DNA of 64,000 nt from an uncultured Gemmatimonadaceae bacterium (GCA_963781585.1 CAWAGQ010000008.1:96001-160000); one strand, 5' to 3'; counted from the first letter of the stretch, positions 2,872 through 62,221 are shown. Numbers and translations are program-made. Notes: generated by a model from the letters alone, not told the origin.

Positions 2872-3729
2872 ATGCACATGCGCAACGTCTGTCTGACATC
2901 GTCAGGTCTCGTCGCGGTCGCGGTGCTTCACTCCGCCTGCACGTCCGAGCTGCCGGAACACCCGGTCGAATACCGCTCCCCGGCCGGCGTCGATTACGTG
3001 GCCCTGTCGGACACCGGAGCCGTGGCGCACGCGGACTCCACCCTGGCGGCGGACCCGGGCAACGTCGGGAAGATCCTCCAGCTCGGCCTCGCCCAGGCCG
3101 GCATCCGCCGTTACCGCGAGGCGATCGCGACCTTCACCCGGGCCATTGCCATCGCGCCCGACAGCGGCATCCTCTACCGCTGGCGCGGCCACCGCTATCT
3201 CTCGGTGCGGCAACTGGACAGCGCGCGCGCCGACCTGGAACACGGGCTCGCCCTCGATTCCACGCTGTACGGCTGCTGGTATCACCTGGGTGTGGTGAAG
3301 TACGTGAGCGGGGACTTCGCCGGTGCCGCCGACGCCTTCGCCCACGCGCTGCCGCTCGCGCCTAACGCCGAAGAGCACGCCGGCTCGATCGACTGGGGCT
3401 GGATGTCCCTGTCACGGGCCGGGCGCTCCGCCGATGCCCAGGCCTGGCTCGACCGCAACAGCGATTCGATCCCGGCGGTGAATGCCTACACGCGGCGGCT
3501 GCAGCTCTATCGCGGCCAGATTCCGCCGGAGCAGCTGATCACGCCGGCCGACACGGACAATATCCAGGTGGCGACGCTGAAATACGGACTGGGCAACTGG
3601 TACCTGCTGCACGGCGACACGGCCCAGGCTCGTGCCGCTTTCGAGCAGTCGGTCGCGTCCGGCGGCTGGCCGGCATTCGGGTTCATTGCATCAGAGGCGG
3701 AGTTGCGGCGCCTGGGCGGCGCGAAGTAG
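2872..3729 (+). CDS. Tetratricopeptide-repeat lipoprotein
   Basis: Lipobox LHSAC; TPR patterns (YREAIATFTRAIAIAP, WYHLGVVKY...AF..AL). Confidence 0.75.
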   Translation: MHMRNVCLTSSGLVAVAVLHSACTSELPEHPVEYRSPAGVDYVALSDTGAVAHADSTLAADPGNVGKILQLGLAQAGIRRYREAIATFTRAIAIAPDSGILYRWRGHRYLSVRQLDSARADLEHGLALDSTLYGCWYHLGVVKYVSGDFAGAADAFAHALPLAPNAEEHAGSIDWGWMSLSRAGRSADAQAWLDRNSDSIPAVNAYTRRLQLYRGQIPPEQLITPADTDNIQVATLKYGLGNWYLLHGDTAQARAAFEQSVASGGWPAFGFIASEAELRRLGGAK

Positions 3730-3782
3730 GTCTCCGGTCCGCCGGCGCCGCTCGTCGCCGGACTGATCAGGCCATCAGAGCC

Positions 3783-4268
3783 TCAGCGGGCGACTCCGGC
3801 CGGCGCGAGGCGCTGGCGGATCGCGCCCAGATGATAGGTCGCGTGCGCGATCGCGCCGACCGCGGCGCCCAACGCGTCCTCGTTCCAGTCGTCGCGACTC
3901 CGCACCACCACGACCAGGCTTTCGTACTCCCGCCGCAGCTGGGCCTGCAGCGCGGCCCACGCGGCGTCGTCCACCACCGACACCGTCCAGCTCTGGCTGC
4001 GATCGCGCGAGGTCCGCTCACCGCGCACCTCCCGCGTGGCGAGCGCGAGGCTGGCCGCCACGTGATGCACGTGTCCGGCGATGCTCGTCTGACCGGGGCC
4101 GCCCTCCTGCGAGGCCTGGGCGAGGCTCAGGCGACTGATCGTCCCCAGTAATCCGGTCCCGGGGCCCGTGTCGCTGAAATAGGTCCAGGGGCCGGGAGGC
4201 CCCTCGAACGCTTCACGCAGCATTCGCAGCAGAAGACCAACCGTTACCGCGCTCGGTGTACCGCTCAT
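3783..4268 (-). CDS. DinB family protein
   Basis: SIAGHVHH and AHATYHLGAIRQ His motifs typical of the DinB four-helix bundle. Confidence 0.75.
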   Translation of the reverse strand: MSGTPSAVTVGLLLRMLREAFEGPPGPWTYFSDTGPGTGLLGTISRLSLAQASQEGGPGQTSIAGHVHHVAASLALATREVRGERTSRDRSQSWTVSVVDDAAWAALQAQLRREYESLVVVVRSRDDWNEDALGAAVGAIAHATYHLGAIRQRLAPAGVAR

Positions 4269-4304
4269 CGCCCCTCGTCCTCCCCGTTAGGCAGCATCCC
4301 GTTG

Positions 4305-6250: not shown

Positions 6251-7648
6251 GTGTCTTCCATCATACGCGTGCTCGTGGCCAGCGGCGTCCTGCTCCGCGG
6301 CGTCGCCGGCCTGGCGGCGCAGGAACCATCTCGCACCGCCCTGGTCGCACGCCTCGACTCGATCGCCGGGGCACCGGTGAAAGGCGGCGCTGTGGCCGGG
6401 ATGGCGGTCGCGGTGGTCAAGGGCCGCGACACGCTCCTGTTCAAGGGCTACGGCCTGTCCGATCTGGAGAATCAGGTCCCGGTGACGCCGCAGACTGTAT
6501 TCCGCATCGGCTCCATCACCAAGCAGTTCACCTCCTCGGCGGTGATGCAGCTTGTGGAGCAGGGCAGGATCGGACTGGACGACGAGATCACGAGATACCT
6601 GCCGACGTTTCCGACCCACGGGCACCGGATTCTGGTGCGACACCTGCTGAATCACACGTCGGGTATTCCGAGCTACACCGACATCGGCCCGAGCTTCGGC
6701 CGCGTCGCGCGCCTCGACCTGGCGCATGATTCGCTTCTCGCCATCGTCGCGCCGGACTCCCTGATGTTCGAGCCGGGAACGCACTTCTACTACAACAACA
6801 CCGGCTACTTCATGCTCGGCATGATTCTCGAGCACGTCACCGGTCAGAAGTACGGCGACTATCTCGCGGAGCGGTTGTTCACGCCGAACGGGCTGACGCA
6901 GACGACGTACTGCGATACGCGGAAGCTCATTCCGCATCGCGCGCAGGGTTACGATCGCACCCCGGCCGGTCCCGTGAATACCGGCTTCCTGAGCATGGAT
7001 CTGCCGTTTGCCGCCGGGTCACTGTGTTCGACGGTCGGAGATCTCGTGTCGTGGACGCGGCTGCTGTCGTCGGGCGCCATCGTCGGCGCTGCGTCGTACC
7101 GGCAGATGACGACGCCCGTGGCGTTACCCAGCGGCCGGCCGATGAACTACGGATTCGGCCTCACGTCCGACTCGGTCGGTGACCACCGCATGATCGCGCA
7201 TGGCGGGGGAATCAATGGCTTCATCTCGCAGCTGGCGTATTTCCCGCAGGATTCGCTGACCATTGCCGTACTCGCCAACACATCGCCCGCGCCATCGGGC
7301 GCTGTCGCCGAGGCGATCGCGCGGACCGTGCTTGGCGTGCCGCCGCCCGCGCCGACGCCGCCGAAGGACCTTCCGGTCACGCCGGAGGACCGGGCGCGGT
7401 ACGCGGGCGACTACGCGATGACGCGACCCGACGGATCGAAGCAGGCCGTTCGCGTCTTCGACGACAACGGCCAGCTCATGTTCCAGCCCAATGGACAACG
7501 AGCGGTGAAGTTGACCAGCCAGGGTGGCACCGTGTTCCTGGCCGTCGGCGCGGGCCGGGTGGCGTTCGACGTCGTCGACGGCCGGGCGGTCGGCTTCGTC
7601 TTCGGCGGCGGCGCGCGCGCGCTCGAGGCGACCCGGCGTTCCCCCTAG
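6251..7648 (+). CDS. Serine hydrolase, class C beta-lactamase / S12 family, secreted
   Basis: FRIGSITK (SxxK), LLNHTSG, YYNNTGY (YxN) and HGGGINGF; signal peptide. Confidence 0.9.
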   Translation: MSSIIRVLVASGVLLRGVAGLAAQEPSRTALVARLDSIAGAPVKGGAVAGMAVAVVKGRDTLLFKGYGLSDLENQVPVTPQTVFRIGSITKQFTSSAVMQLVEQGRIGLDDEITRYLPTFPTHGHRILVRHLLNHTSGIPSYTDIGPSFGRVARLDLAHDSLLAIVAPDSLMFEPGTHFYYNNTGYFMLGMILEHVTGQKYGDYLAERLFTPNGLTQTTYCDTRKLIPHRAQGYDRTPAGPVNTGFLSMDLPFAAGSLCSTVGDLVSWTRLLSSGAIVGAASYRQMTTPVALPSGRPMNYGFGLTSDSVGDHRMIAHGGGINGFISQLAYFPQDSLTIAVLANTSPAPSGAVAEAIARTVLGVPPPAPTPPKDLPVTPEDRARYAGDYAMTRPDGSKQAVRVFDDNGQLMFQPNGQRAVKLTSQGGTVFLAVGAGRVAFDVVDGRAVGFVFGGGARALEATRRSP

Positions 7649-8613
7649 CCTAACGATACCACCGCTTTCCCCCGGGCGTGGCCTTCCTCGAGCCAGCGGA
7701 TGGCGTGGGAGACCTGCATCAGCGTGTAGCGCCTGCCAATGACCGGCCTGACCTTGTTCGCCTCCATCAACTCAGCGAGGGCGACCAGGTCGTCCTTCTT
7801 CATCGACGCCGCGCCCAGGACCAGAGTCCGGCTCACGAATCGCGACAACACCAGTGTCTTGAGCGCGCCGGCCAGCGGTCCAATCCAGCGCCCGGCAGGA
7901 CCTCCGATCCAGACAAAGGTCCCGCCGAGGTTCATCACGCGGCGGTAGGCCGACCACGCGCGGTTCCCCGCGGTGGTGAAGATCAGGTCGTATCGCTCAC
8001 TGCTCCGCGTGAAATCTTCCCGGGTGTAGTCGATGACATGGTCCGCGCCGATCGATCGCACGTGGTCCACGTTCGCGGTGCTGCACACCCCGGTGACCTG
8101 CGCGCCGACCGACTTGGCGATCTGCACGGCGAAATGGCCGATCCCTCCCGCCGCACCGGTGATCAGGACCTTCTGTCCCGACTGAAGCCGCCCTTTGTCG
8201 CGAAGCCCCTGCAGCGCGGTCACCCCCGCGGTGGGTGCGGCCGCCGCCTGCTCGAATGTGACGTTGGCGGGCTTCATCGCCAGATGGTGCTCGCGGGCAC
8301 AGACGTACTCTGCACAGGCGCCCCGGCCGGCGCCGAAGACCGCAGCACCCGGTTGAAACTGCTTGACGTTCCTGCCGACGCCTTCGACCTCGCCGGCCAG
8401 ATCGACTCCGAACCGCGTCGTCTTCGGCCTGCGCAGCCCGGTCATGACGCGAATCGGATACGGTTCCCCTCGCATGAAGTGACAATCCATTTGATTGACG
8501 GAAGCCGCCCGAACCCTCACCAGGACGTCATCGTCACCGGGCGTGGGCTTGTCGATTTCCTCACAACAGAGAACATCGGGCGGGCCATACCCGTGATAGA
8601 CGATGGCTTTCAT
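7645..8613 (-). CDS. NAD(P)-dependent alcohol dehydrogenase / quinone oxidoreductase (MDR family)
   Basis: VLVRVRAASVN, GAAGGIGHFAVQIAK, GADHVIDYTRED and HARGKAVV. Confidence 0.9.
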   Translation of the reverse strand: MKAIVYHGYGPPDVLCCEEIDKPTPGDDDVLVRVRAASVNQMDCHFMRGEPYPIRVMTGLRRPKTTRFGVDLAGEVEGVGRNVKQFQPGAAVFGAGRGACAEYVCAREHHLAMKPANVTFEQAAAAPTAGVTALQGLRDKGRLQSGQKVLITGAAGGIGHFAVQIAKSVGAQVTGVCSTANVDHVRSIGADHVIDYTREDFTRSSERYDLIFTTAGNRAWSAYRRVMNLGGTFVWIGGPAGRWIGPLAGALKTLVLSRFVSRTLVLGAASMKKDDLVALAELMEANKVRPVIGRRYTLMQVSHAIRWLEEGHARGKAVVSLG

Positions 8614-15905: not shown

Positions 15906-18881
15906 ATGATCCCCGTCAACGTGCTGCGCCTGTTGACCTTCGGAGGGCTCGCCCTCGACCGACCCGGGGGGCCGCTGCCGCCGCGGCTGCGCCCGCAGCG
16001 GCTGGCGATTCTCGCTGTGCTCGCTTCCGCCGCTGACCGTGGCATGTCGCGCGAGCGCATGGCCGGCCTCTTCTGGCCGGAAGCAGAGGAGGAGCGGGCC
16101 CGTCACTCGCTTCGCCAGGCGCTGTATGCGCTGCGTCAGGAGCTGGGCGCCGACGTGATCCGGTCCGGCGCGCTCCTGTCGCTCGACGGTTCGGCACTGA
16201 GCTCCGACGTCGGTGACTTCCGGGCGGCTCTGGCCGCGGGGGACCGCGCGCGTGCCGCGGCACTCGCGACCGGACCGTTCCTCCTGGGATTCTACCTCGC
16301 GGACAGCCCCGAATTCGAGCGCTGGGTGGAGGAAGAGCGGGCCGCCCTCGCCGTCGACGCCACCCGCGTCGTCCTCGCGCTCACGAAGGAGGCCGAGGCC
16401 GGCGGCGACCAGGACGCCGCCGCCGAGTGGTGGCGCCGGCTCACCATGCTCGACCCGCTGAGCGGCCGCTTCGCGTTAGGCTATCTGAAGGCACTGGCTG
16501 GTCGCGGCGACCGGGCCGGTGCGCTGGCCTTCGCCAGGGCGCACGAGAGCATCGTGCGCCGCGAGCTGGAGGCCGACTCCGATCCGGAGATCCGTCGACT
16601 TGAGGCGGAGTTGCGCGCCATCCCGTCGCCCGCCGTGGTCCGCGTCGCCCCGCCACGCGCGCCCGACGCCGGCGTCGCGGTCGATGGGGCGCCCGCCGCC
16701 ACACCTGACGAGGCAGGGCTCGACGCGAAGCCATCCAGCGTACCGATGCCAGCCCACGGCCCGAATGCCCCACGTGACACCGGTGCGGATGCAACGCCAT
16801 CGCGCGCCGACGCCATCCCGCCGGCGCGCTCACGGAAGCGACCCTGGCTCATCCCGAGCGTGGCAACCGCGGGCGTGTTGGTCGTCGTGTCCATCCTGAC
16901 CGCCGACCGGTGGGGCCCGCCGCTGGGCCTCGGCGTTCATCGTAGTTCACCGACGTTTGCGGTCGGGATGATCCGCGAGGAAGGCGTCCCCGACAGCCTG
17001 CGCATCGGCGGTGTGCTCACCGACATGCTCGCGACCAATCTGGCGCGCGTGGGCGGGCTCTCGGTGCTCTCCAACGCGCGGCTCTTCGAGTTGATGCTCC
17101 CTGGTCAGGATACGCTCGCCACCGGATACCTCGAGGCGGCACGGCGGGCCGGCGCCACCGAGATCTTTCAGGGGCGTTTGCTCTCCGGCCCGCAGTGGAG
17201 CCTGGCAATGGAGATCCAGCGCGTGGATCTCGCGACCGGCCTTGTTCGGAGCGGTTATCGCGTCGCCGCCAGCGACCGCTATGCGCTGATCGACAGCATG
17301 ACGGCGGCGATCGCACGCGACTTGCACGTCGGACTACCCAGCAGCTCGGTAGCCGACGCGACGACCGATTCGCCAATGGCATATCGCCTCTACGAGGAGG
17401 GACTCCGCGCCTACTATCAGTACGACGATCCTGCCGCTCGGCGCCTGATGCAGGCGGCGCTCCAGGAAGACTCGAGCTTCGCCATGGCGGCCTACTACGA
17501 CGCACTGCTCGCTCCGGGTGGAGGCGCTGAGGAGGTCGACACCCGCCGACGGGCGTTGCGGCTCGCCGCCCGCGCGCCCGAACGCGAACGCCTGACGATC
17601 ACGGCCGATTTGCTCACACTGAACATGGAACCGGCGGCGCTCGCCGTCGCCGACTCCTTGACCACCAGATATCCCACCAACCCGCGCGCGTTCGCGGTGG
17701 ATGCAACAGCCCTGTACATTGCCGGCGAATGGCGCGACGCCGTGACGGCGATCGAGCGTGCGATCGCGCTGGACTCGGCGTCGGAGCCCGTAGAGCGACG
17801 CAATTGCAGGCTCTGCTCGGACCTCGGGCAGCTTGCCGAGGTCTACTTCTGGTGGGATTCGCTGCCCGCGGCGGAGCGCACCGCGCAGCGCTTCCTCCGG
17901 CTTCGGCCGGGCTCGCACTATCCGTGGCATCTCCTGGTCCGTTCGGCGGCCGCGCGCGGGGACCTGAGCGCCTTCCGCGAGTACCTGCGACGCTTCGACG
18001 AGGCGAATCCGTCGATCACGTCGGCGAACTACCTGCTCCACTTCGTGACGCTCGCCGAGGATTACGACGAGGTCGAACGGAGCGTGCAGAAGGCCCTGGA
18101 CTCTCCGAGAGCGGACGACGCCGGCGAGGCCCGGTGGTTTCGCTCCATTTCGCTCCGGAACGAGGGACGACTGGAGGAAGCTCTCAGGCTGGCGCGCGTG
18201 CGTCCGAACCCTAACGACCTGGCCGAAGGATTGATCGCGCTCGAACGTGGGGATCCCCGTACCGCCGTCTCGATCTTTCGTGCGCGGGCTCGCGTGAGTC
18301 AGTCCATGTGGCCATCCGGGATCCGAGCACGGCATGAGGCCTGGGACAGGACGCTCCTGGGCATGGCACTGGCCTCCGCGGGGGACACGATTGCCCTCCG
18401 CGCTCTCGCCGATACCGTGGAGAACCTGGGACGCCGGAGCATCTACGGACGCGACCGGCGCGCGCATCACTACTTGCGTGGGATGCTGCTGGTGGCCGAG
18501 CACCGGGACCCGGAAGCGGTTGAGGAGCTGCGCCAGGCGATTCACTCATCGACCAACGGCTTCACGCGGGTCAACTACGAGCTGGGGAAGACGCTCATGC
18601 GGCTGGGTCGCCCTGCCGAGGCCGCACCGATCGTGCGGTCCGCCCTGCACGGCGACATCGATGGATCGAATCTGTATGTCACACGAACCGACCTCCACGA
18701 GCTCCTCGCACAGGTATTCGATCGACTGGGGAGTCGCGACAGCGCAGCCGTGCACTACCGGGCAGTAGTCAAGGCCTGGGAGCACGCCGACCCGCTCTAC
18801 CAGGCGCGGCGCGAGGCGGCACGCGCGTGGCTCGCTCGGCATCCAGAGCCGCAGACCACCGGTACAGCCAAGGACCGTTAG
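15906..18881 (+). CDS. Membrane-anchored SARP-type regulator: wHTH + BTAD, TM helix, TolB-N-like domain and TPRs
   Basis: LRLLTFGGL, SRERMAGLFWPE...ARHSLRQALYALR and GPFLLGFYL..SPEFERWVEEER; Pro/Ala linker; TM helix near 16845-16900; TPR C-terminus. Confidence 0.85.
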   Translation: MIPVNVLRLLTFGGLALDRPGGPLPPRLRPQRLAILAVLASAADRGMSRERMAGLFWPEAEEERARHSLRQALYALRQELGADVIRSGALLSLDGSALSSDVGDFRAALAAGDRARAAALATGPFLLGFYLADSPEFERWVEEERAALAVDATRVVLALTKEAEAGGDQDAAAEWWRRLTMLDPLSGRFALGYLKALAGRGDRAGALAFARAHESIVRRELEADSDPEIRRLEAELRAIPSPAVVRVAPPRAPDAGVAVDGAPAATPDEAGLDAKPSSVPMPAHGPNAPRDTGADATPSRADAIPPARSRKRPWLIPSVATAGVLVVVSILTADRWGPPLGLGVHRSSPTFAVGMIREEGVPDSLRIGGVLTDMLATNLARVGGLSVLSNARLFELMLPGQDTLATGYLEAARRAGATEIFQGRLLSGPQWSLAMEIQRVDLATGLVRSGYRVAASDRYALIDSMTAAIARDLHVGLPSSSVADATTDSPMAYRLYEEGLRAYYQYDDPAARRLMQAALQEDSSFAMAAYYDALLAPGGGAEEVDTRRRALRLAARAPERERLTITADLLTLNMEPAALAVADSLTTRYPTNPRAFAVDATALYIAGEWRDAVTAIERAIALDSASEPVERRNCRLCSDLGQLAEVYFWWDSLPAAERTAQRFLRLRPGSHYPWHLLVRSAAARGDLSAFREYLRRFDEANPSITSANYLLHFVTLAEDYDEVERSVQKALDSPRADDAGEARWFRSISLRNEGRLEEALRLARVRPNPNDLAEGLIALERGDPRTAVSIFRARARVSQSMWPSGIRARHEAWDRTLLGMALASAGDTIALRALADTVENLGRRSIYGRDRRAHHYLRGMLLVAEHRDPEAVEELRQAIHSSTNGFTRVNYELGKTLMRLGRPAEAAPIVRSALHGDIDGSNLYVTRTDLHELLAQVFDRLGSRDSAAVHYRAVVKAWEHADPLYQARREAARAWLARHPEPQTTGTAKDR

Positions 18882-18950
18882 GCTGTTGCCGCGCAGGGCG
18901 TGTTCCTCGAGGGGGCGGCCCGCCCTGGGAGCCCGGGAACACCGCACGCC

Positions 18951-35947: not shown

Positions 35948-35978
35948 CTTCAAAGCGGCCAGGAATGATCTGTGGTAC

Positions 35979-36155: not shown

Positions 36156-36482
36156 GTGCCCCAGTCCCTCGGTGAATTCGAGCAGCTCGTCCTTCTCGCC
36201 CTCGCCCGGCTGGACGATGCAGCCTACGGCGTCACGGTGCAGCAGGAGATCACGCGACACGCGCGCCGCGAGGTCGGACTCGGCAGTGTCTACAAGACCC
36301 TGAGCCGCCTCGAGACCAAAGGGATGGTCGAGTCGTGGGCCGGCGAACCCCTTCCGATCCGCGGCGGTCGGCGGAAGAAACACTATCGCCTCCTCCCCGC
36401 CGGATCCCGCGAGCTCCAGCGGTCGCTGGCCGCGCTGCGCGGCATGACGCGCGGGCTCGCGCCACGGCTGGAGCTGCGATGA
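36156..36482 (+). CDS. PadR family transcriptional regulator
   Basis: LGEFEQLVLLAL, AYGVTV, GSVYKTLSRLETKG and RGGRRKKHY. Confidence 0.9.
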   Translation: MPQSLGEFEQLVLLALARLDDAAYGVTVQQEITRHARREVGLGSVYKTLSRLETKGMVESWAGEPLPIRGGRRKKHYRLLPAGSRELQRSLAALRGMTRGLAPRLELR

Positions 36483-44985: not shown

Positions 44986-45023
44986 GGAGAAAATCCTCAC
45001 AGCCGAAGTGGGCCAGCAGGTTC

Positions 45024-46629: not shown

Positions 46630-46737
46630 GCAAGGGCATGGGCCATACCATAGGTCATAGGCCATAGCCAAGGCCAGAAAGGTCATGGCGCCGCCTCGGG
46701 GTTTGGCCTCTGGCCTCGGGACTGTGGCCCATGGCGG
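46630..46737. repeat. Heptamer-like repeats in inverted arrangement (AGGCCAT... / ...TGGCCT)
   Basis: Degenerate repeats downstream of the permease, related to the 35979 and 39226 tracts. Confidence 0.5.
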
Positions 46738-47478: not shown

Positions 47479-49569
47479 CTACCGAGTGGAGGAGTAGACC
47501 CGCAGTCCCACCCACACCGTCCGTCCCGGCCCGGGCTCGAAGAAGCGACCGTTCGACGCGTTCGACACCACGTTCGCGGCATACGTCCTGTCGAAGATGT
47601 TGTCGATGCCGATCACGGGCTGGGCCCCCAGTCTCGTGAGCTCCAGCGCCAGTCGCGCGTTGACCACGGTGTAGGCGTTCGCGTAGTTGGCGTTCGCATC
47701 GTCGGCCGGCTGCCGCGCGGCGTGCTGCAGTTCCACGGCGACCAGGGCCCATGCCGGCCGCGCGGTGGCATAGGCGCTCAAGGTGGCCGGCGCCACGCCC
47801 GGCACGTGGTTGTCACGATAGCTGGTCCCGCTCACCACGAAATCCTGATACGTGTAGCGGAGCCATCCGCCCGACGCACCTAACGAGAAAATGCCGCGGG
47901 CCGCGGAGAGCCCGATCTCGGCGCCGCGCCGTTCGGTGTGTCCGGCGTTCCGGTAGTACCGGCGTCCGCTGCCGTCGGGGACCTCGAACGGGATCAGTTC
48001 ATCCGTCGTGGTGACACGATAGAGCGCCAGGTCGTAGCTCAACTGGCCGTGCCAGATGCCCTTGGCGCCCGCCTCGATCGTGCGTCCGTGCTGCGGCTTG
48101 AGCGCGCGATTGAGCCCACCGCTCCCGTCGGGCTGATTGGCCAACTCGGTGGTCGTCGGTGTCTCGAACGACGACGATACATTCGCGTACAGTGACGCCA
48201 GCGCCGCGACCCGCCAGTTGATCCCCGCCATCGGCGTGACGTCGCTCAGCGTGCGCGACTGTTCGCCCGGCACGCCGGTGGGGCGGTGGTCCAGTACGCC
48301 AAACCGGGTCCGATCGCCCCGCACCGTCGCGGCGAGGGACAGCCGTTCGGTAGGATCCACCTCGGCGCGGGCGTAGGCTCCCAGACCCAGCACGCGCTCG
48401 CGCTGATCCACCGTGATACTCCCCTGATCGGAGGTGCCGGGACAGGTGGCGGGACGGGTGCCGGTGAGCCCGGCGCAGTTCGCGAAGTTCTGCCGGTCGT
48501 CGTCCTGACTGAGCAGGTCGATGCCGGCGGCCAGGCGCACCGGACGCCCGGCGGCTGTGAGATTGTACTGCCCGCGCGCCGATCCGCCTAACGTCATCCG
48601 GTCGAACGACACGATCGCGAAGCTCTGCGGATTGTCGAGCGACCGCAGGCCGCCGTGCAGGTTGACGTTGAGGGAGCCCCGATCGCCGTCGTGAGACGCC
48701 TGGAGCGCCAGGATCGATTGCGTGACCGTCTTGCTCGCTTTCTTTCTGACGTTGGTGGGATCGGCGGCCGTGCGGTCGGAGGCCATTTCCGCGGCGGTGA
48801 GCGATCCCGGATTCTGTGCCAGGGGTGAATCGAACCAGCTGACCTGGGCCAGGTACCGCGTGCCGCCGGCGGCCCATCGGGCGTCGGCGTTGGCGCTGGT
48901 ATTCCGGAAGCGGGAATACTTGCGCGGCCCCTGGCCCTGGTTCCAACTGGACGTCGCCTGCATCCCGACCTTGCGGGCGCGCCCGCCCACGTAGGCCGAC
49001 GCGCGCTTCACCCCGTCGGCGTAGAACGCGCGCACACGCGCCTCGGCGCCGGAATCGGGCGGCGCCTCGGTGCGGAAGTCCACCACGCCGCCTGACGAGT
49101 TGCCGTATAGCGCGCCGGCACTGCCCCGGATGACCTCGACCGCGGCGACCGTCTCGAGGTCCAGGTAGTCGACCGCGGTCTGGCCGTCGGCCTGGGTGAG
49201 CGGAATCCCGTCGCGGAGAATGCGCACGCCGCGGATCCCGAACGCCGAGCGGGCACCGAAGCCCCGGATCGCGAGCCGGGGATCCTGAGTCGGGTTGAAC
49301 CGGTTGGCGACACTGACCCCGGGAACGAACGCCAGCATGTCGGTGAGCGACGCCCGCCTGGTGCCGGCGCGCGACGAGTCGATCGTCAGGCGCGTGAGCG
49401 CGAACGGGAGGTCGAACGTTGACCGGGCCGCATCGCGGGTGACGGTGACGCGCACCGGCGTGATTCGGACGGCGGCGGAGTCCTGGCATTCCACCGGCGG
49501 TGCGCGCAGGACCAGCAGGAGCGCGACAACGCCGCCGGCAACGCGGACTCGCGCGAATATGTCAGGCAC
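47479..49569 (-). CDS. TonB-dependent receptor (YncD-like)
   Basis: IRGFGARSAFGIRGVRILRDGIP, VEVIRGSAGALYGNSSGGVV, FETPTTTEL and FFEPGPGRT. Confidence 0.9.
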   Translation of the reverse strand: MPDIFARVRVAGGVVALLLVLRAPPVECQDSAAVRITPVRVTVTRDAARSTFDLPFALTRLTIDSSRAGTRRASLTDMLAFVPGVSVANRFNPTQDPRLAIRGFGARSAFGIRGVRILRDGIPLTQADGQTAVDYLDLETVAAVEVIRGSAGALYGNSSGGVVDFRTEAPPDSGAEARVRAFYADGVKRASAYVGGRARKVGMQATSSWNQGQGPRKYSRFRNTSANADARWAAGGTRYLAQVSWFDSPLAQNPGSLTAAEMASDRTAADPTNVRKKASKTVTQSILALQASHDGDRGSLNVNLHGGLRSLDNPQSFAIVSFDRMTLGGSARGQYNLTAAGRPVRLAAGIDLLSQDDDRQNFANCAGLTGTRPATCPGTSDQGSITVDQRERVLGLGAYARAEVDPTERLSLAATVRGDRTRFGVLDHRPTGVPGEQSRTLSDVTPMAGINWRVAALASLYANVSSSFETPTTTELANQPDGSGGLNRALKPQHGRTIEAGAKGIWHGQLSYDLALYRVTTTDELIPFEVPDGSGRRYYRNAGHTERRGAEIGLSAARGIFSLGASGGWLRYTYQDFVVSGTSYRDNHVPGVAPATLSAYATARPAWALVAVELQHAARQPADDANANYANAYTVVNARLALELTRLGAQPVIGIDNIFDRTYAANVVSNASNGRFFEPGPGRTVWVGLRVYSSTR

Positions 49570-52532: not shown

Positions 52533-54918
52533 GTGTCAGATCTCGTCTCCGCATTGCGAGATGCCCTCGCCGGCCGATATACAATCGACCGCGAGATCGG
52601 CCGTGGAGGCATGGCGAGCGTGCTGCTGGCGCATGACGTGCGGCACGACCGTCCGGTCGCGGTCAAGGTGCTTCACCCCCAGATCGCCGCGGCGGTAGGA
52701 TCCGAGCGCTTCCTTCGCGAGATCCAGGTAGCGGCTCGGCTGCGACACCCGCATATCCTGCCGCTGTTCGACTCCGGCGAGGCCGCGGGTCTGCTCTTCT
52801 ACGTGATGCCGTACGTGGGCGGCGAGTCGCTGCGCGAGCGGCTGCGGCGTGTGGGCGCGCTTCCCCTGGCGGACGCGCTGCGGATCGCGCGCGAGGTGGC
52901 GGACGCGCTCGACTACGCGCATCAGCACGGAGTGGTGCATCGCGACATCAAACCGGACAACGTGCTCCTCGACGACCGGCACGCGCTGATCACGGATTTC
53001 GGCATCGCGCGCGCCGTCACGCCCGACGAGACGAGTGAGATGCTCACGTCCACGGGTCTGCTGGTGGGGACGCCGGCGTACATGAGCCCCGAGCAGGTGA
53101 GTGGCGACCGGCTGCTCGATGGCCGGAGCGACCTCTACGCACTGGGGTGCGTGCTACACGAAATGCTCACCGGCGAACCGCCGTTTTCCGGTCCGACGGC
53201 GCAGGCGATCATGGCAAAGCGCTTCGCCGGCGCCGCGCCGGCCATGCCGGCTGGCATCCCGCCGCCGGTGAGGGCGATCGTCGCTACCGCGATGCAGGTG
53301 ACCCCCGAGAAGCGCTACGGCTCCGGGCGGGACATGGCAGATGCTCTCGACGCCGCGGAGAGCGCGAACCGCGGCGTCGTGGCGACGCCCGCGACGACGG
53401 CGGTGAAGCCGCCGCTGCTGCGCCGGCCCGGCGTCGTGCTGGGGGCGGGCGCCGTCCTCGTTGCGGTGACCCTGTCCGCCGTGCTGCTGAGGCAGCACGA
53501 ATCCGTACCCGCACTGCCGGTGCGGGCCGCGTCGATCATCCCCTCGGTGGGCGTGCTCCCGTTCGCGAATCGCAGCGACAGCCGGGAGATGGAGTACTTC
53601 AGTGACGGCGTCACCGACGAGCTCATCACCGCTCTCTCGCGGGTGAACGGCATACAGGTGGCCGGCCGCACATCGTCGTTCTCGCTGAAGAACAAGGGGC
53701 TCACCGCCCAGCAATCGGCCGACACGCTGCACGTGAAATTGCTGATCGACGGCAGCGTGCGAAGCAGCGGCCCCAATGTGCGCGTGACCTGGGGCTTGAT
53801 CGACGGGGCGACCGGGCGGAGTCTCAACACCGGCGATTTCGACGGCGAAATGCGCAACGTGATCGCGCTGCAGGATTCGCTCGCCCACACCATCGTGGCG
53901 CAGCTCCAGCCGGCGTTAGGCATCACGGTCACCGCCTCCACGCCCCGCCATACCACCGCGAACTTCGAGGCGTACAATCTCTATCTGCAGGGGCACTACT
54001 ACTGGAACCAGCGAACGCCAGCCAGCATGCGGCGCGGCATCGACTACTTCAAGCAGGCGATCGCGCGGGATTCCGGCTACGCCCTGGCCTGGGCCGAGCT
54101 TTCCAGCGCCTACACGCTCGAGGCCGGGTTCGGCGACATGCGCCCGGGCGAGGTGCGGGAGGTCGCCCGGTCGGCCGCCGAGCGCGCGGTCCGTCTCGAC
54201 TCCACGCTGTCGGAAGGATACACGGCGTTAGGCATCTGGCATTCGCTGGCCAACCAGGATTGGGCGACGGCGCTGCCCTACCTGGACCGGGCGGTGGCGC
54301 TCGACTCGGCCAACCCGTTCCCGCATCTCTTTCGCACCTGGGCCCTGCTGGCACTGGGACGCGGCGACGAAGCCCTGGCCGAGGTTCGGAAGGCCGTGGC
54401 CCTCGACCCGCTGGCGCCCACCCAGAACGCGCGGCTGGGCACGGTCCTCATCTGCCTGCGTCGTTACGACGAGGCGATCGCCCAGCTGCGGCACGCCCTC
54501 GAGGTCGACCCCTCGAACGTGCAGGCCCGATTCGAACTCGGACATGCGTACGCCATGAAAGGGGCAGTTCGACGAGGCATTCAAGGCATATCCCGACGCG
54601 ATCGAATCGCAGGCCGGCTTCTCCACGGGATGGCTGGCCGCTTCTCTCGGACGGGCAGGGCGGCAGTCGCAGGCCCGTGCGCTCTACGACCGGTTGCTGG
54701 CGCTTTCCAAACAACGCCACGTCACCCACGAGGCGCTTGCCCTCAGCGCACTTGGCGCCGGTGACACCTCGCTCGCCCTCGACTGGCTGGAACGCGGGGT
54801 GCGCGAGCATTCGTTCTATCTCGTTTTTCTGAATGACGATCCCCTGTTCGACCCGCTGCGCAACGAGCCACGGTTCAAGGCGATGCTCCGGCAACTGCGT
54901 TTCCCCCCTGCGGGATAG
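52533..54918 (+). CDS. Hanks-type Ser/Thr kinase with TM helix, TolB-N-like domain and TPRs; +1 frameshift near 54560
   Basis: IGRGGM, VAVKVL, HRDIKPDN, DFGIA, GTPAYMSPEQ and SVGVLPFAN; the TPR frame continues after AAAGGGG to DPLFDPLRNEPRF. Confidence 0.9.
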
Positions 54919-55085: not shown

Positions 55086-56675
55086 ATGACGTCCGTTCCG
55101 TCGAGCACCCGCCCACCGCTGGTCGTCTCACTCGTCTGTGCGGCGACCTTCGCGATCCCCATCCCCGCGCAATCGCCCTCCGGCGCCGAGGCGCGCGCGG
55201 CAGCCCGGACGTACCGCGAGGCCAACGAAGCCAAGCTGGTACGCGATTTCGCGACCCTGCTCGCCATGCCTAACGTGGCATCGAATCTCGCCAACGTGCG
55301 TCGGAACGCCGACTATCTGTCGGGCCTGCTGCGCGCCCGTGGCATCACGCCCCGGCTGCTGGAGGTGCCCGACGCCCCTCCAGTGGTGTACGGCGAGCTC
55401 GCCACGCCAGGCGCTACGCGAACCGTAGTCCTTTACGCACACTACGACGGCCAGCCGGTGGATCCGAAGCAATGGTCCGGGGCGCCGTGGACGCCGGCGC
55501 TTCGCGACAAGCCGCTGACCCAGGGCGGCCACGATGTCCCGTTCCCCGCCGTCGGCCAGACGGTGAACGGCGAGTGGCGGATCTACGCCCGCTCGGCCGG
55601 CGACGACAAGGCGTCGATCATGGCGATGCTGACCGCGCTCGACGCGATGCGCGCGGCGAAACTGGCGCCGTCTTTGAACGTCAAGTTCTTCTTCGAGGGC
55701 GAGGAGGAAGCCGGCTCGGGCCACCTCGAGGCCATCCTGCGCAAGTACAAGGACCTGCTGCGCGCCGACGCCTGGCTCTTCTGCGACGGCCCCGAGCACC
55801 AGACCGGGCGGCAGCAGGTGCTGTTCGGGCAGCGCGGGGTGGTGGATCTCGAGCTCACCGTCTACGGGCCCACGCGGCCATTGCACAGCGGCCACTACGG
55901 CAACTGGGCGCCCAACCCGGCGGCGCTGCTGGCCAACCTGATCGCGTCGATGCGCGACGACGACGGGCATATCCGGATCGCCGGCTACTACGACGACGTG
56001 CGTCCGATCAGCGCCGCAGAGCGGCAGGCCCTGGCCGCGTTGCCGGCGATCGACCCCATGCTGCGCGCCTCGTTAGGCCTGGCGCACACCGAGGCCGGGG
56101 ACGCGCCGCTGGTGGAGCGGATCATGATGCCGGCGCTCAACGTGCGCGGGCTGCGCGCTGGCGGGGTGGAGGAGACGTCGGCCAACGTGATCTCTACCGA
56201 AGCACTGGCGTCGTTCGATTTCCGGCTGGTGCCCGATCAGACGCCCGAACACGTGAAGCAGCTTGTCGAGCGGCACATCGCCGCGCAGGGATACCACGTC
56301 GTTCGCGACGTGCCTGACTCGGCCACCCGGGTGACGTACCCGAAGATCGTGCGGATGCGGTGGGGGAGCGGGTATCCGGCGCAGCGGGCGTCGCTTGACG
56401 ATGCATTCGGCCGCGCGCTCATCGCCGCGATTTCCGACGGGGCGCCGCAGGCACCGCTCGTGCTGCCCACCTCGGGCGGGAGCGGGCCGAGCTATCTGTT
56501 CGCGGAGATCCTGGGCGCGCCGGTGGTGGGGCTGCCGATCGCCAACTACGACGACAACCAGCATGCGGCGAACGAGAATCTGCGTCTGCAGAATCTGTGG
56601 GACGGGATCGAGTTATATGCAGGGCTGCTGGTGCAGCTGGGCGCCACGTGGAGGAGCGCCGGCGCGACGCCATGA
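55086..56675 (+). CDS. M20/M25/M40 family metallopeptidase, secreted
   Basis: YAHYDGQP, ARSAGDDK, EGEEEAGS, LHSGHYGNW and NQHAANEN. Confidence 0.92.
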   Translation: MTSVPSSTRPPLVVSLVCAATFAIPIPAQSPSGAEARAAARTYREANEAKLVRDFATLLAMPNVASNLANVRRNADYLSGLLRARGITPRLLEVPDAPPVVYGELATPGATRTVVLYAHYDGQPVDPKQWSGAPWTPALRDKPLTQGGHDVPFPAVGQTVNGEWRIYARSAGDDKASIMAMLTALDAMRAAKLAPSLNVKFFFEGEEEAGSGHLEAILRKYKDLLRADAWLFCDGPEHQTGRQQVLFGQRGVVDLELTVYGPTRPLHSGHYGNWAPNPAALLANLIASMRDDDGHIRIAGYYDDVRPISAAERQALAALPAIDPMLRASLGLAHTEAGDAPLVERIMMPALNVRGLRAGGVEETSANVISTEALASFDFRLVPDQTPEHVKQLVERHIAAQGYHVVRDVPDSATRVTYPKIVRMRWGSGYPAQRASLDDAFGRALIAAISDGAPQAPLVLPTSGGSGPSYLFAEILGAPVVGLPIANYDDNQHAANENLRLQNLWDGIELYAGLLVQLGATWRSAGATP

Positions 56676-56748
56676 TCGAGGGGCACCAGCCGGGAATATT
56701 GGATACGTAGGGCTCCTGCGCCTTAGCGTGCAGTTAGGCGCGCGTTTC

Positions 56749-57964: not shown

Positions 57965-60421
57965 TCACGGCGCCCGAGTCCACAATACAATCGTCCCGCA
58001 CGCCGCCCCGGTCCCTCCAAACTGGATGGGCGTATTCGCCGGTCCCGGGTAGAGTTCGATCGCCTCGACGCCATTCGGTGCAAAGTCGTCGATATTGGGC
58101 GGCTTCACGAGCCCGCCCGGTTGAAAAATCACCGCTCCGTCCAGGTAGATCTGGAAATAGCACCGGTTCAAGCCATAGGAGCCGTCCGGAAGGGCCTCTG
58201 TCGACTGTCGATCGAGAGTCGACGCGAAAGCTGAGCGGGTGCTCTCGAGAAAGACCGTATTATCAGGCCGGCGCACGAGCTTTACCCCGGGCACCGAGCG
58301 CAGGATGTCGCTCAGGCGCGAGTGCTCGCGTGCGGCGAGTTGCGCCCGGGTGATGAAGTGTCCCCCGGCATTCATCGCGCGCCGCTCCTCGAACCCCCGC
58401 ATCTTCGCCGCCACGGCTGTTCCCGTCACCACCACGCCGGGCAGTTCGGTCACGTTGGGCGTCAGCACGAACTCGCGCACCGCGTCCGCCGGCTGCGGCA
58501 GCGTCACGCGCGCCAGCACCGGCCGGTAGCCCACCGCGCGCACCACCACCGTGTATGTCCCCCAGGGCAGCATCGCGAAGGCGAAGGCGCCGTCGGGCGC
58601 CGGCCGCGCCGCACGGGACATGCCGGGCAGCAGCACCTCCGCCGCCACGGCCGGCCGCATGGTAGAGTCTTGCCTCACGACTACCCGCCCTCGCAGCGTC
58701 GTCGCCTTCGCCGCCGCCGCGCTCAACGCCAGCTCCACCTCGACCGCGCTTGTGGTGTCGTCCGCGGCCACGGTGCGGTCCCCGATTGCCCCGCCCAGTT
58801 CCGCGTGCAGCCGCACGAGGTCCACCCGCGGCGGCCGGCAGAAGGTCACGATCCCGGCCTCGTCGGACTCGGTCTCGATGGTCGAGTCGCTCACTGACGC
58901 ACTCACCATCTCCGTTGCCGCCTGGACGGCGAGCCGCCGCCACGACAGCAACGTTCGCGCCCCGGGGACCGGAGCGTGCGTGAGTGAGTCGACGACGTAC
59001 CCGATAATGAGCTGGGGCCGCTCCCCGCGACCGGCCTCGGCACCGCAATAGCGTGCACGTAGCGTCGCCGCACTCGACACCGTCCAGTTGGCGACCGACT
59101 CGCTCCCCCGGGAGAGCACGACCTCCTGCTGCGCTCCGTGCGTACCGAAGCGCACGAGTCGCGGGTCGTCGGTGGCAAGGATGTAGCGCCCCGCCAAGAC
59201 ACTCCGGAGCCGGTACCGGCCCACGCTATCGGTCACCGCCTCGGCCACTCCGCGTGCCAGGCTGAGGTGCGCGCTCGACATGGGGACTCCGCGCAGACTG
59301 TCGAACGCCACCCCGGTCAGCGCCGGCAGGTCGGCCGGCGCCTCCCGGCCAGCGGCGAGCGCGGCCCACCCGCCCTCCTCACGGTAGCCGAGCAGACTGT
59401 CGCGGGCAGGCACGGTGAGCGCGCCGACGCGTGCCGCGCCCACGCGGCCCAGCCGCGGGAGCCGGATGTACCACTGGCCCACAATCCACTGGCCGTTAGG
59501 CAGGGCTACGAACTCCAGCCGCCCGCCGGCGCGCCCCGCCTCGTTGCGCATGGGCAGGTGCGTGTACGTGTAGTCCAGCCACCGCAGTTCCGCGCTCGGC
59601 TGCTCGACCCAGAGCACCCCGCTCACGTCGCTCACCGTGCGCCCGGGAGCCGGCTCGAAAGCAAGCCCGATCAGCGCGTCGGTCCCGGCGAGCTCCTTCA
59701 CGGCGAAGCAGTGGTCCTGCGTGAAGCGGTCCGACAGGAGGAGCCCCGCGTCGGGGGCGAAGAAGGTGAGCGTACCGTCCACGTCGTGGGCAAAGCCCAG
59801 GCGCGAGAGCTCCTCCGGCGAGGCGGTCGCGAACGGCATCCCTCCCGGAATTCCGTGCGAGGAGGTGGTCTCGGCGACCACGCGCAGCGCCTGGTCGAGG
59901 GTGCGCGTGTAGCGCAAGACCTGGATGGGGAGCCCCTGCGGCGCCGAGAGGACCGTGGCGTCGAGCGCCTTGCGCACTTCCGCCCACAGCCGGGCCGCCG
60001 CCGGGCCGGTCGCCGAATCAAGCCGGCAAGAACGGCGTGCGCGGACGTCCACCTTCTCGAGCGTGAGGGGGCGCGCGACGAGGGCGAGGCGCACCGCCAG
60101 GGGATCGGCCTCCACCACCAGGAGCGCGGAGCTGTCGGCCGCGTACCCAATGCGCTCGGCGCGGATCCGGACGCGGGCGCCTAACGTGGCATGCAGGGTG
60201 GCGCGCCCTTGTTCGTCGGTGAGTGCGGCAGCGGGGCGCGAGCCGTCGGCGAGCACCAGCGAGGCGATCGCGCCCACGAGCGGCGTGTCAGACGCCCGGT
60301 CCACCACCAGCACGCGAACGCTCTGCGCTAACAGGCCACAGCCCGGTAACCCAACCGTGAGGATGGAGGCGATGAGCCCACATACCGCGCGGCGCACTAC
60401 TCTGACTCGCTGCCGGCGCAT
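57965..60421 (-). CDS. Secreted multi-carboxypeptidase-regulatory-domain protein with C-terminal TonB-plug-like domain and no barrel
   Basis: FFAPDAGLLLSDRFTQDHCF; C-terminus GFEERR...ITRAQL...IYLDG...VEAIELYPG...CGTIVLWTR. Confidence 0.75.
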   Translation of the reverse strand: MRRQRVRVVRRAVCGLIASILTVGLPGCGLLAQSVRVLVVDRASDTPLVGAIASLVLADGSRPAAALTDEQGRATLHATLGARVRIRAERIGYAADSSALLVVEADPLAVRLALVARPLTLEKVDVRARRSCRLDSATGPAAARLWAEVRKALDATVLSAPQGLPIQVLRYTRTLDQALRVVAETTSSHGIPGGMPFATASPEELSRLGFAHDVDGTLTFFAPDAGLLLSDRFTQDHCFAVKELAGTDALIGLAFEPAPGRTVSDVSGVLWVEQPSAELRWLDYTYTHLPMRNEAGRAGGRLEFVALPNGQWIVGQWYIRLPRLGRVGAARVGALTVPARDSLLGYREEGGWAALAAGREAPADLPALTGVAFDSLRGVPMSSAHLSLARGVAEAVTDSVGRYRLRSVLAGRYILATDDPRLVRFGTHGAQQEVVLSRGSESVANWTVSSAATLRARYCGAEAGRGERPQLIIGYVVDSLTHAPVPGARTLLSWRRLAVQAATEMVSASVSDSTIETESDEAGIVTFCRPPRVDLVRLHAELGGAIGDRTVAADDTTSAVEVELALSAAAAKATTLRGRVVVRQDSTMRPAVAAEVLLPGMSRAARPAPDGAFAFAMLPWGTYTVVVRAVGYRPVLARVTLPQPADAVREFVLTPNVTELPGVVVTGTAVAAKMRGFEERRAMNAGGHFITRAQLAAREHSRLSDILRSVPGVKLVRRPDNTVFLESTRSAFASTLDRQSTEALPDGSYGLNRCYFQIYLDGAVIFQPGGLVKPPNIDDFAPNGVEAIELYPGPANTPIQFGGTGAACGTIVLWTRAP

Positions 60422-60927
60422 GGTGAATAGCCCTCCGTTCGACCGCCTAGCTGTCCTTCATCAGGGCGCCCTGCTCCCTGAAGTGTGCTTCTGACCCCGG
60501 CCACAGGCTTATGGCAATTCCTTGTAGCGCCGTGCTGGCTGGGTTCCGAACGGCGCCTTCCCCTCGAGGAACTCCGTAATCACATGCTCGAGCTCGGTCG
60601 AATCCGGAATGCTGCGGAACCACCAAGGCTGTCAACGGGAACCGCAACTGGTTGACACGGACCCTTGTTACCTCCTTGCGAATTGTGAGCCTTTCCATCA
60701 GTCGGCGCATTGCATGGGTGCACCTGGCGGTCAAGGCAGAAGGACAGGCGTATCTGAGGATGCTCCATTGTGAGTCACATCACGCTGCTGCGCCATGGAT
60801 CATTGATCTACGCCGACAGCACGATCCTTCAAAGCACCGCAGCTTGTCGCTCGGTGTGGTCGGCTAGCTGCTCGGGCCGACGCGTCCACTCCACAGCGGG
60901 CATTACGGAACTGGGCGCGTAGTCCGA

Positions 60928-61305
60928 CTACCCCCCACTCAGCGGATTGACCACCCGAAGGAACGGGAACTGATGGAAGTCGGTGTCGGCGGTGCGGACT
61001 TCGGAAAGTCCGTGCTCCAGCATCAACGCCGCGGTGTGCAGATCGTGCACGGGATTCCCCGCCAGCCGCGGATGCCGCCCCGCGAGCTCGCGCACGACGT
61101 CGGGATGACGCTCGGTTTCCGTGAGGATGCGACAGCCGGGGCTCGCCCGCACGGCTGATACCCATGACCAGGCCCGCTCGAGGGAGAGCGGCCGGTCGAA
61201 CACCGTGCGATGGGTACTGAGGCGGAGGAATTCGTAGATCACGCCCCAGGTGAGGAACCACAGGTCGTTGCCGCGTCGGTAACGCGCCTGCTGCTTCCGG
61301 GCTCT
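60928..61305 (-). pseudogene. N-terminally truncated VapC/PIN toxin
   Basis: WFLTWGVIYEFLRLSTH, GNPVHDLHTAALMLEHG and TADTDFHQF; the first acidic motif and an antitoxin gene are missing. Confidence 0.75.
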
Positions 61306-61309
61306 GTCG

Positions 61310-62221
61310 CTACTCCTCCATCGTCACCGCCTGGTGCCTGACCAACACCAGCATGCTCGCGCCGGCCACGATCGTCACCGCGCCGGCCACCGTCCACACG
61401 GTGAACCGCTCGCCGAAGAGCAGCACCGCCCACGCTACCGCGAACACGATCTGCAGATATCCAGTCGTAGTTGCCCGCGCGGTGCGCTCGATCTGCAGCC
61501 CGCGCGTCATGTACATCTGGGCCAGCTGCGTCGCACACCCCGCCCCGATCAAGAGCGCCCACTCCGCCACGCCGGGCATCCGCCAGTGCAATGCCACGAA
61601 CGGCAGCGCCATCGGGATCTGCACCAGCGGCAGGTAGAAGACCACCACCATGGGGTGCTCGACCTCGAGCCGGCGAATGGTGGCGTAGGCGGCGCCGCTG
61701 CAGGCCGCGCCCATGAGCGCGATCCCCGCCCAGGCCGGCGGAATGTCGCTCGAGGCGCCGCCGAACAGCAGCGCGGGCCGGGTGATGAGCAGCACCCCCA
61801 CCAGAGACGCCCCCAGTGCCAGCAGCTCGCGCGTTCCGACGTGCTCGTGATACCAGAGCGACGCCAGGATGATCGCGAACACCGGATTGGTGTACTGGAT
61901 CAGCGTTGCCTCGCCTAACGGGAGATGGGTGAGCGAGAAGATGAAGCAGGCCAGCGCCAGCGACCCCCAGATGCCCCGCAGGATCAGCAGCCGCCGCTGG
62001 ACGCCGAAGATCGCCCGTCCCCGCACCCCCCGGCGTCGCAGCACCAGGTAGCTCAGGCCGAGCGTCACCAGACCGCGATACAGGACGATGTCCATGCTCG
62101 GCACGGTCCGGCCGGCGAGCTTCACCAGCACACTCATCACGCTGAACCAGAACGCGCCGATCGCCATGAAGCGGATCCCCGACGGGACGTCGGCCACCGC
62201 GTGGGTGATGGTGCGCGTCAT
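61310..62221 (-). CDS. DMT/EamA family transporter
   Basis: GGAGG RBS; LPLGEATLIQYTNPVF; two EamA repeats. Confidence 0.88.
   Translation of the reverse strand: MTRTITHAVADVPSGIRFMAIGAFWFSVMSVLVKLAGRTVPSMDIVLYRGLVTLGLSYLVLRRRGVRGRAIFGVQRRLLILRGIWGSLALACFIFSLTHLPLGEATLIQYTNPVFAIILASLWYHEHVGTRELLALGASLVGVLLITRPALLFGGASSDIPPAWAGIALMGAACSGAAYATIRRLEVEHPMVVVFYLPLVQIPMALPFVALHWRMPGVAEWALLIGAGCATQLAQMYMTRGLQIERTARATTTGYLQIVFAVAWAVLLFGERFTVWTVAGAVTIVAGASMLVLVRHQAVTMEE

Follow-up and report, generated by a model that had tools for sequence, protein, structure and literature searches.

The stretch of DNA analyzed here, called the window throughout, comprises 64,000 nt from the genome of an uncultured Gemmatimonadaceae bacterium (G000, contig C8, positions 96001-160000; the G000 assembly amounts to 5.715 Mb in 17 contigs with 67% GC). 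It carries unrelated chromosomal genes, including those for MacB/FtsX permeases, TonB-type receptors, a Ser/Thr kinase, peptidases, and transporters, and scattered through them are copies of a non-palindromic 8-bp sequence, CGTTAGGC (hereafter, the word). An earlier note, prepared from the window alone, had pointed out this octamer and listed 22 exact copies, 13 on the (+) and 9 on the (-) strand, together with six one-mismatch variants (at 18209, 34848, 37113, 42685, 47878, and 56732). We verified every coordinate of the exact copies and found all six variants. In 100 dinucleotide-preserving shuffles of the window, the word was expected 0.97 times (standard deviation 0.95, maximum 4). One-mismatch matches number 54 in the window and are mostly ordinary high-GC words, e.g., CGTCAGGC. 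An Rfam search of the window gave no match.

The excess extends far beyond the window. The whole assembly contains 1,442 copies (724 forward and 718 reverse), or about one per 4,000 bases, whereas Markov models predict 216.6 (order 0), 89.4 (order 1), 44.3 (order 2), or 50.6 (order 3). At 28 times the third-order expectation, the word ranks first among over-represented 8-mers of G000, and its sub-words are also near the top. Its flanks are nearly uninformative (position -1 is seldom C, position +8 is G or A) and show a strong three-base periodicity, indicating a preferred codon phase. Neighbors that differ from the word by a transition are mildly enriched: CGTTAGGT 5.4-fold, TGTTAGGC 3.5-fold, and CGCTAGGC 2.3-fold. 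The first of these is a secondary form confined to genomes in which the word is more frequent than its reversed control (termed word-rich below); it occurs 183 times in G000 and 1,540 times in another word-rich genome, G009.

To place the copies relative to genes, we used the calls of a crude custom caller (4,455 genes, 84% coding). Most copies lie in genes and in one of two frames: 759 are read as xCG-TTA-GGC in the sense direction and 269 as G-CCT-AAC-G in antisense, with another 65 antisense copies read as GC-CTA-ACG and 29 sense copies in the rare frame C-GTT-AGG-C. Intergenic copies number 219, and 101 fall on gene edges. The word also supplies stop codons, with 70 genes ending in CGT-TAG-GC and 44 in GCC-TAA-CG. 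Of the 1,340 TTA codons of G000, 759 (57%) sit in CG-TTA-GGC and a further 150 in CG-TTA-GGT or TG-TTA-GGC. A tRNA-Leu(UAA) gene is present. The earlier note described three coding frames in the window; we saw two coding frames, one stop codon, and one spacer copy there, and the GTT-AGG frame is absent.

When codons were shuffled within genes so that amino acids and codon usage were kept (n = 20), the mean numbers of copies fell to 17.5 in sense and 26.2 in antisense (maxima 26 and 34), compared with 788 and 334 observed. Hence, the enrichment is not lost under an amino-acid- and codon-preserving shuffle. Occupancy of peptide-compatible sites was high in the favored frames, with the word present at 15.7% of [APST]-L-G sites and, on the other strand, at 32% of x-P-N-[ADEGV] sites, and low in other phases (0.9% of V-R sites and 2.6% of [CGRS]-L-T sites). 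The two favored frames, one per strand, share the same phase, which places word positions 2, 5, and 8 at wobble bases. This shared phase and the per-site occupancies show that the excess of sense copies reflects coding opportunity and not a strand-specific function. We conclude that the signal lies on double-stranded DNA.

The assembly also allowed us to follow individual copies. Contigs C8 (434 kb) and C5 (446 kb) share a collinear stretch of ~354 kb with 87.5% identity (range 82-97%) and represent either two related strains in one bin or a duplicated replicon; G000 is listed with 7.19% contamination. The word was intact between the contigs at 74 of 92 sites counted in C8 and 74 of 89 counted in C5, about twice the 40.7% seen for all 8-mer windows (p ~1e-14), and 14 of the 16 alignable copies of the window were intact in C5. 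Most partners that did not match differed by a single base. The 100 bp flanking shared copies were 88.6% identical, whereas those flanking random conserved 8-mers were 89.9% identical, and the level remained flat out to 3 kb. A conserved word with normally diverging flanks indicates that the 8 bp are maintained while the adjoining sequence changes. Together with the shuffle, the site occupancies, and the RpoB sites described below, this supports the earlier suggestion of selection at the level of the DNA, or else of drive at that level, instead of selection on the proteins. An orthologous comparison of the window with the congeneric genome G001 yielded only paralogous kinase matches of ~70% identity.

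Table 1. Exact copies of the word in the window, with positions counted from its first base and the state of the matching site in contig C5
Position	Strand	Context	C5
3360..3367	-	antisense to TPR gene 2872-3729(+); there G-CCT-AAC-G (Pro-Asn)	
4285..4292	+	spacer between genes 3783-4223(-) and 4305-5633(-)	
7648..7655	-	sense; final two codons (TTA-GGC) of zinc-dehydrogenase-like gene 7645-8613(-)	
16474..16481	+	sense xCG-TTA-GGC, BTAD/TPR regulator gene 15906-18881	same
18876..18883	+	provides the TAG stop of gene 15906-18881	same
21354..21361	+	antisense G-CCT-AAC-G, gene 21052-22236(-)	
23923..23930	-	sense xCG-TTA-GGC, CsgG-like gene 23578-24609(-)	
31951..31958	-	antisense G-CCT-AAC-G, M20-dimer gene 31532-32746(+)	same
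32596..32603	-	antisense, M20-dimer gene 31532-32746(+)	one-base difference (GCCGAACG)
38877..38884	+	sense xCG-TTA-GGC, MacB/FtsX permease gene 36479-39142	same
39622..39629	+	open reading frame 39321-41192(+) with CarboxypepD_reg domains, missed by the gene caller; frame xCG-TTA-GGC derived by arithmetic from its start	same
43344..43351	+	antisense G-CCT-AAC-G, outer-membrane barrel gene 41119-45000(-)	same
44448..44455	+	antisense, outer-membrane barrel gene 41119-45000(-)	same
44679..44686	+	antisense, outer-membrane barrel gene 41119-45000(-)	one-base difference (CGTTTGGC)
48586..48593	-	sense xCG-TTA-GGC, TonB-dependent receptor gene 47479-49569(-)	same
53914..53921	+	sense, Ser/Thr kinase-TPR gene 52554-54764	same
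54226..54233	+	sense, Ser/Thr kinase-TPR gene 52554-54764	same
55268..55275	-	antisense G-CCT-AAC-G, M20 peptidase gene 55086-56675(+)	same
56071..56078	+	sense xCG-TTA-GGC, M20 peptidase gene 55086-56675(+)	same
59494..59501	+	antisense, gene 57965-60397(-) (CarboxypepD_reg/Plug)	same
60179..60186	-	sense, gene 57965-60397(-) (CarboxypepD_reg/Plug)	same
61913..61920	-	sense xCG-TTA-GGC, EamA transporter gene 61310-62326(-)	same

A second over-represented family in G000 consists of short intergenic tandem arrays with 7-8-base units AGGCCAAA (331 occurrences genome-wide), AGGTCATA, and AGGCCAGA. In the window, arrays lie at 35978-36048, 36127, 39237, 46693-46735, and 26331, adjoining MacB/FtsX permease genes. 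The word-poor relative G035 (loci L253-L262) has tandem repeats of a heptamer, (CTCTTAC)n, and shows mild enrichment of a 9-mer, CCCAGTCC(C).

We used GC skew to relate the orientation of the word to replication and found no polarity. Intergenic copies of G000 split 63:64 between the G-rich and the C-rich strand, and the per-kilobase densities of sense and antisense copies were equal in leading- and lagging-strand genes (chi-square 0.0). Over 40-kb segments, word orientation tracks gene orientation (r = 0.43), and a regression gave 0.17 for gene bias and -0.01 for GC skew. The 13:9 split in the window, taken earlier as an argument against a strongly polar motif, is thus uninformative alone, since orientation follows the genes through coding opportunity. 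The same data bear on the suggestion of a Chi-like recombination hotspot and on the related idea of a guide for a DNA translocase like the FtsK-orienting polar sequences (KOPS). Chi and KOPS are 8-bp words found about once per few kilobases, which resembles the length and the density of one per 4 kb seen here, and the higher word density in genes with high GC content at third codon positions (GC3), which possibly recombine more, would also suit a hotspot. Chi, KOPS, and the SpoIIIE recognition sequences (SRS) are polar, however, being defined by their orientation to replication, and the lack of such polarity in G000 contradicts a function of this kind. Given that word orientation follows gene bias and not GC skew, we reject this reading as scarcely credible.

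Copies are spread evenly. Counts per 40-kb segment are near-Poisson (mean 10.2, variance 11.0), and gaps between copies are more even than exponential: there are 25 gaps of up to 250 bp (88.6 expected), 43 of 250-500 bp (83 expected), 730 of 1-4 kb (592 expected), and 112 of 8-16 kb (159 expected). Word density depends on gene composition: genes whose GC3 is below 0.75 carry 0.05 copies per kb and those above 0.88 carry 0.41, an ~8-fold rise. Over the same range, TTA codons outside the word fall from 0.63 to 0.10 per kb, so the gradient of the word runs opposite to what composition predicts. Consistently, the longest word-free stretches (C8:283862-322251, C8:332874-357436, and C5:298151-324259) have 62% GC and a GC3 of 0.71, compared with a genome mean of 0.826 (standard deviation 0.048). 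These stretches belong to a nearly word-free island of ~75 kb with the same low GC and GC3 that C8 and C5 share (C8:283862-357436 and C5:276646-324259); a PilA-like gene lies at the island edge (C8:324679-325062).

Spacing that is more even than random, together with the equivalence of both orientations, could mean that some abundant chromosome-organizing protein (nucleoid-associated, as the earlier note proposed, condensin-loading, or marking domain boundaries) binds the word, which is then kept by selection for regular spacing. Site-by-site conservation of the 8 bp alone, and the presence of copies across the whole resident chromosome, agree with such a site. It does not predict the GC3 gradient and comes without a protein candidate, and the distribution of the word among relatives speaks against it, as follows.

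Among 41 relatives (G000 included), 12 are word-rich (G000, G001, G005, G009, G014, G015, G020, G023, G024, G036, G038, and G040). The densest, G009, has 6,360 copies in 5.1 Mb, while the others of the 41 mostly have 6-60 copies, well under the control. A survey across the phylum, proposed in the earlier note, showed the word to be neither universal nor restricted to G000: it is rich in 14 of 301 sampled Gemmatimonadota genomes, all of them Gemmatimonadales, with 11 of 71 genomes in family f1 (e.g., G240 with 3,896 copies, G297 with 4,141, and G304 with 4,469), 3 of 125 in family f2 (all from genus g79), 0 of 3 in family f3, and 0 of 102 in nine further families. Genomes flagged as unpublished were counted as single rows (G008 in all tallies; G085, G124, and G203 in the 301-genome tally). 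In an RpoB tree of 33 genomes (FastTree, midpoint root), word-rich genomes occupy at least five separate positions among word-poor ones, and a single genus holds G240 and G297, with ~4,000 copies each, as well as G293, with 66. Core chromosome architecture is not expected to vary within a genus or to recur in so many scattered lineages, and we regard a chromosome-organizing site as rather unlikely.

RpoB also shows how copies arise. At three invariant A/P-L-G sites, the tripeptide is kept in all 33 genomes. Of 10 word-rich genomes, 7 encode at least one of these leucines by TTA, whereas none of the 23 others does; those use CTC or CTG. Elsewhere in RpoB, copies of the word were created by F>L, D>N, and G>R replacements. 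Both the site pattern and the replacements indicate that copies were repeatedly created in situ. The word has either many independent origins or one ancestral origin followed by many losses, and synonymous sites are too diverged to favor one of the two.

Origin by point substitution at fixed sites, along with the mild enrichment of the transition neighbors CGTTAGGT, TGTTAGGC, and CGCTAGGC, is also what a sequence-specific bias of mutation or repair, similar to very-short-patch repair, might leave behind, with no reader making use of the product. Known patch-repair biases, however, shift word frequencies about two-fold, compared with 28-fold or more here. A change from CTG or CTC to TTA takes two substitutions, some RpoB copies need an amino acid replacement, and even spacing is not predicted. 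The endonuclease Vsr was found in only 1 of 12 word-rich genomes (4 of 29 others). A by-product of repair is therefore very improbable.

The patchy distribution is typical of mobile methylases, and the word could be the target of a non-palindromic N6-adenine or other methyltransferase, its abundance arising through some methylation-dependent process. A contiguous, asymmetric 8-bp site would be unusual for a methylase. Our search covered cytosine-C5 and Vsr types: C5-methylases (PF00145) occur in 5 of the 41 relatives, 2 of 12 word-rich and 3 of 29 others, so that neither enzyme is associated with richness. Hence, the methylase inference of the earlier note is not supported for these types, and we reject a Dcm/Vsr or C5-methylase explanation. 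G000 itself carries a Dcm-type C5-methylase gene with an adjacent Vsr endonuclease gene (C7:477177-478451), and the same module is present in G007 and G019. In favor of a methyltransferase, the cyanobacterial octamer HIP1 shares hyper-abundance, conservation, and spacing with the word, and its effect on transformation is reported to depend on methylation (PMC13756078); a methylated uptake motif is described for Campylobacter (PMC8468864). The methylation-dependent process may thus itself be transformation, in which case this explanation, unlikely as it stands, would overlap with the self tag proposed below.

We also looked for the word beyond the order. At the universal SALGPGG site of RpoB, it gave at least 120 matches, mostly in low-GC genomes where these codons occur by chance. 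Among the matches listed, 14 loci had a GC content of 0.58 or more and lacked a second word copy; we counted the word genome-wide for nine of these and for L171, chosen outside the GC list. In this small sample for the word outside Gemmatimonadales, one of the ten genomes was word-rich (810 copies) and is labelled Gemmatimonadaceae, while the nine others (Cystobacter, an alphaproteobacterial metagenome-assembled genome [MAG], an unclassified MAG, a Caulobacteraceae genome [unpublished, G326], Competibacteraceae, Nocardioidaceae, Acidimicrobiia, and two Acidobacteriota) were word-poor. A second RpoB-site scan returned 17 matches, 16 labelled Gemmatimonadaceae and one on a contig of a Paraburkholderia-labelled MAG. 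This 11.6-kb contig (L264) carries a Gemmatimonadaceae-type rpoB end along with the word and is probably mis-binned, a case indicating that the word can flag binning errors.

As stated in the earlier note, the word contains the integron core consensus GTTRRRY (R box); its GTTAGGC is the attC/attI core. Real attC sites in Gemmatimonadales use the word: in attC-like sites of the order and of G000, the outer boxes are CGTTAGGC and GCCTAACG. In the word-poor genomes G027 and G025, copies lie in one orientation ~100 bp past small co-oriented open reading frames, which is the anatomy of a cassette array (26 of 27 copies on one strand in the first 24 kb of G027:C95; 8 of 8 in G025:C3). G000 has an intact intI gene (C7:185885-186829(-)) adjoining C7:150000-185000, and all 12 word copies in C7:152176-183860 lie outside called genes. 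At least one attC-like hairpin, with arms ACGCCTAACG...CGTTAGGCGT that terminate in the word, is present, at C7:160735-160848 (fold z -2.8). An identical two-gene element, coding for a 301-aa tyrosine recombinase and a 389-aa protein, occurs three times in G000 (C7:172353-174475, C7:182952-185074, and C13:309021-309851) and once in G001; in both C7 copies, the word starts 3 bp past the recombinase stop codon.

An integron integrase, or a tyrosine recombinase related to it, might also recognize the dispersed copies, which would then serve capture, insertion, or formation of cassettes. The array anatomy in G027 and G025, the intact intI and the attC-like hairpin of G000, and the commonness of integrases in the order (above cut-off in 26 of 41 genomes) suit this reading. 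Integrases, however, are not associated with richness (8 of 12 word-rich genomes and 18 of 29 others), and all that G009, the genome with the highest word density, carries is a frameshifted fragment. In G000, the 1,442 copies yield at most 15 pairs with attC geometry (inverted boxes 50-150 bp apart), 8 of them with both exact cores; these account for at most ~2% of copies. Whereas attC sites consist of paired boxes with a hairpin, >98% of copies are solitary, lie in genes, and have neither partner box nor hairpin, nor do their flanks share a hairpin consensus. Finally, genomic insertion by integron integrases is reported to require only GWT (bioRxiv 10.1101/2022.09.11.507474). We conclude that the attC-core identity is real but does not explain the dispersed copies. 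Since integrases are unlinked to richness and pairs with attC geometry so few, we reject integron-driven dispersal, and a recombinase reading of the word at large appears quite improbable.

The explanation that we favor, though tentatively, is that CGTTAGGC is a transformation-linked self tag, similar to an uptake sequence and recognized on double-stranded DNA. The last base of the word is C, with T accepted. The comparisons above supply its starting points, namely the excess, maintenance at the DNA level, independence of orientation, even spacing, origin by substitution, and restriction to certain lineages; the genome also encodes ComEC and a type IV pilus. ComEC was found in 40 of the 41 relatives and a strong PilM match in 37, G000 included in both cases; the four genomes without PilM are 64-81% complete. 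G000 has four minor-pilin operons, several PilA-like genes, and orphan pilins.

On this explanation, the word would arise in place by point substitutions, most of them synonymous and some amino-acid-changing, and copies would then be retained by a process that reads the 8 bp themselves in either orientation. Cells of these lineages, when competent, would prefer word-bearing fragments for uptake or recombination, and word-bearing alleles would replace word-less ones, amounting to molecular drive. Copies would accumulate evenly in long-resident, recombining DNA, stay scarce in recently acquired DNA, and settle in those codon phases that put three of the eight bases on wobble positions. We infer that a component of the transformation machinery reads the word and that its persistence is due to drive, not to selection for a cellular function.

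The known systems closest to this are the DNA uptake sequences (DUS) of Neisseriaceae and the uptake signal sequences (USS) of Pasteurellaceae. Like the word, they are short and non-palindromic, number ~1,000-6,000 copies, are equally frequent on both strands, and lack replication polarity. They are mostly intragenic in the cheapest codon phases, originate by substitution, are spread evenly, are rare in atypical DNA, and are conserved between close relatives. In G000, in contrast, the core spans 8 bp and its flanks show hardly any consensus, and the hosts are uncultured soil Gemmatimonadales. HIP1 (GCGATCGC) of cyanobacteria offers a second parallel: it is a hyper-abundant octamer located in genes, conserved beyond its surroundings, quasi-regularly spaced, and absent from some related genomes (PMC13756078, PMC4390886). 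According to one report, it also correlates with pilus and competence genes, raises transformation, and was proposed as a transformation tag (PMC13756078). HIP1, however, is palindromic and has known cognate methylases, whereas the word is asymmetric and a C5-methylase gene accompanies it in 2 of 12 word-rich genomes only.

Several observations weigh against a self tag. DUS and USS are family-wide and come in dialects; the word is patchy (14 of 301 genomes), split within the genus of G240, G297, and G293, and identical wherever it is rich, with no dialects among the samples. An uptake-like tag, as suggested in the earlier note, fits the data on abundance, presence on both strands, even spread, and machinery, but family-wide occurrence with dialects was not seen. 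None of the word-poor relatives has an excess of the GTTAGG core, and in 200 kb each of word-poor G003 and G035, we found no alternative hyper-abundant dispersed word. Flank preferences around the word are only weak. Between C8 and C5, identity does not rise around shared copies, giving no sign of recombination tracts centered on the word. While cyanobacterial pilus genes track HIP1, ComEC and PilM are near-universal here whatever the word density; being equally present in word-poor genomes, they do not explain its distribution, and we rejected uptake machinery as the discriminator between rich and poor genomes. Two pilin candidates, the PilX-like protein of one minor-pilin operon and an orphan PilA-like protein, likewise showed no pattern restricted to word-rich genomes. 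Our literature search found no paper linking Gemmatimonadota with competence or uptake sequences, and a search for the octamer matched primers only. Transformability is reported to be gained and lost rapidly within species (PMC11472951, PMC6744872), and such turnover could make the word patchy even if the gene for the reader were neither gained nor lost.

If the word is an uptake tag, its identity with the attC core may be no coincidence, although we regard this as a long shot. Every cassette carries GCCTAAC...GTTAGGC in its attC, so cells reading the word would import integron cassettes preferentially, together with kin DNA, from the soil. Single strands delivered by transformation are described as efficient substrates for cassette recruitment (PMC12614218). 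Uptake specificity would then be functionally coupled to the integron system, providing a directed route for cassette capture, and the word would be the first uptake tag outside Proteobacteria and cyanobacteria.

The word has practical uses as well. Its density marks resident versus acquired DNA and mis-binned contigs in Gemmatimonadaceae MAGs. The contrast of ~4,000 versus 66 copies within one genus, and the five or more scattered word-rich lineages, provide natural material for finding the reader. A drive strong enough to recode invariant RpoB sites and to claim more than half of TTA codons affects analyses of codon usage and selection. Sequence-tagged DNA exchange is documented in two families of Proteobacteria, and a recent proposal extends it to cyanobacteria. 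A self tag in Gemmatimonadales would be a third or fourth independent case, this time in abundant uncultured soil bacteria, and would make genome-wide self tags a recurrent solution.

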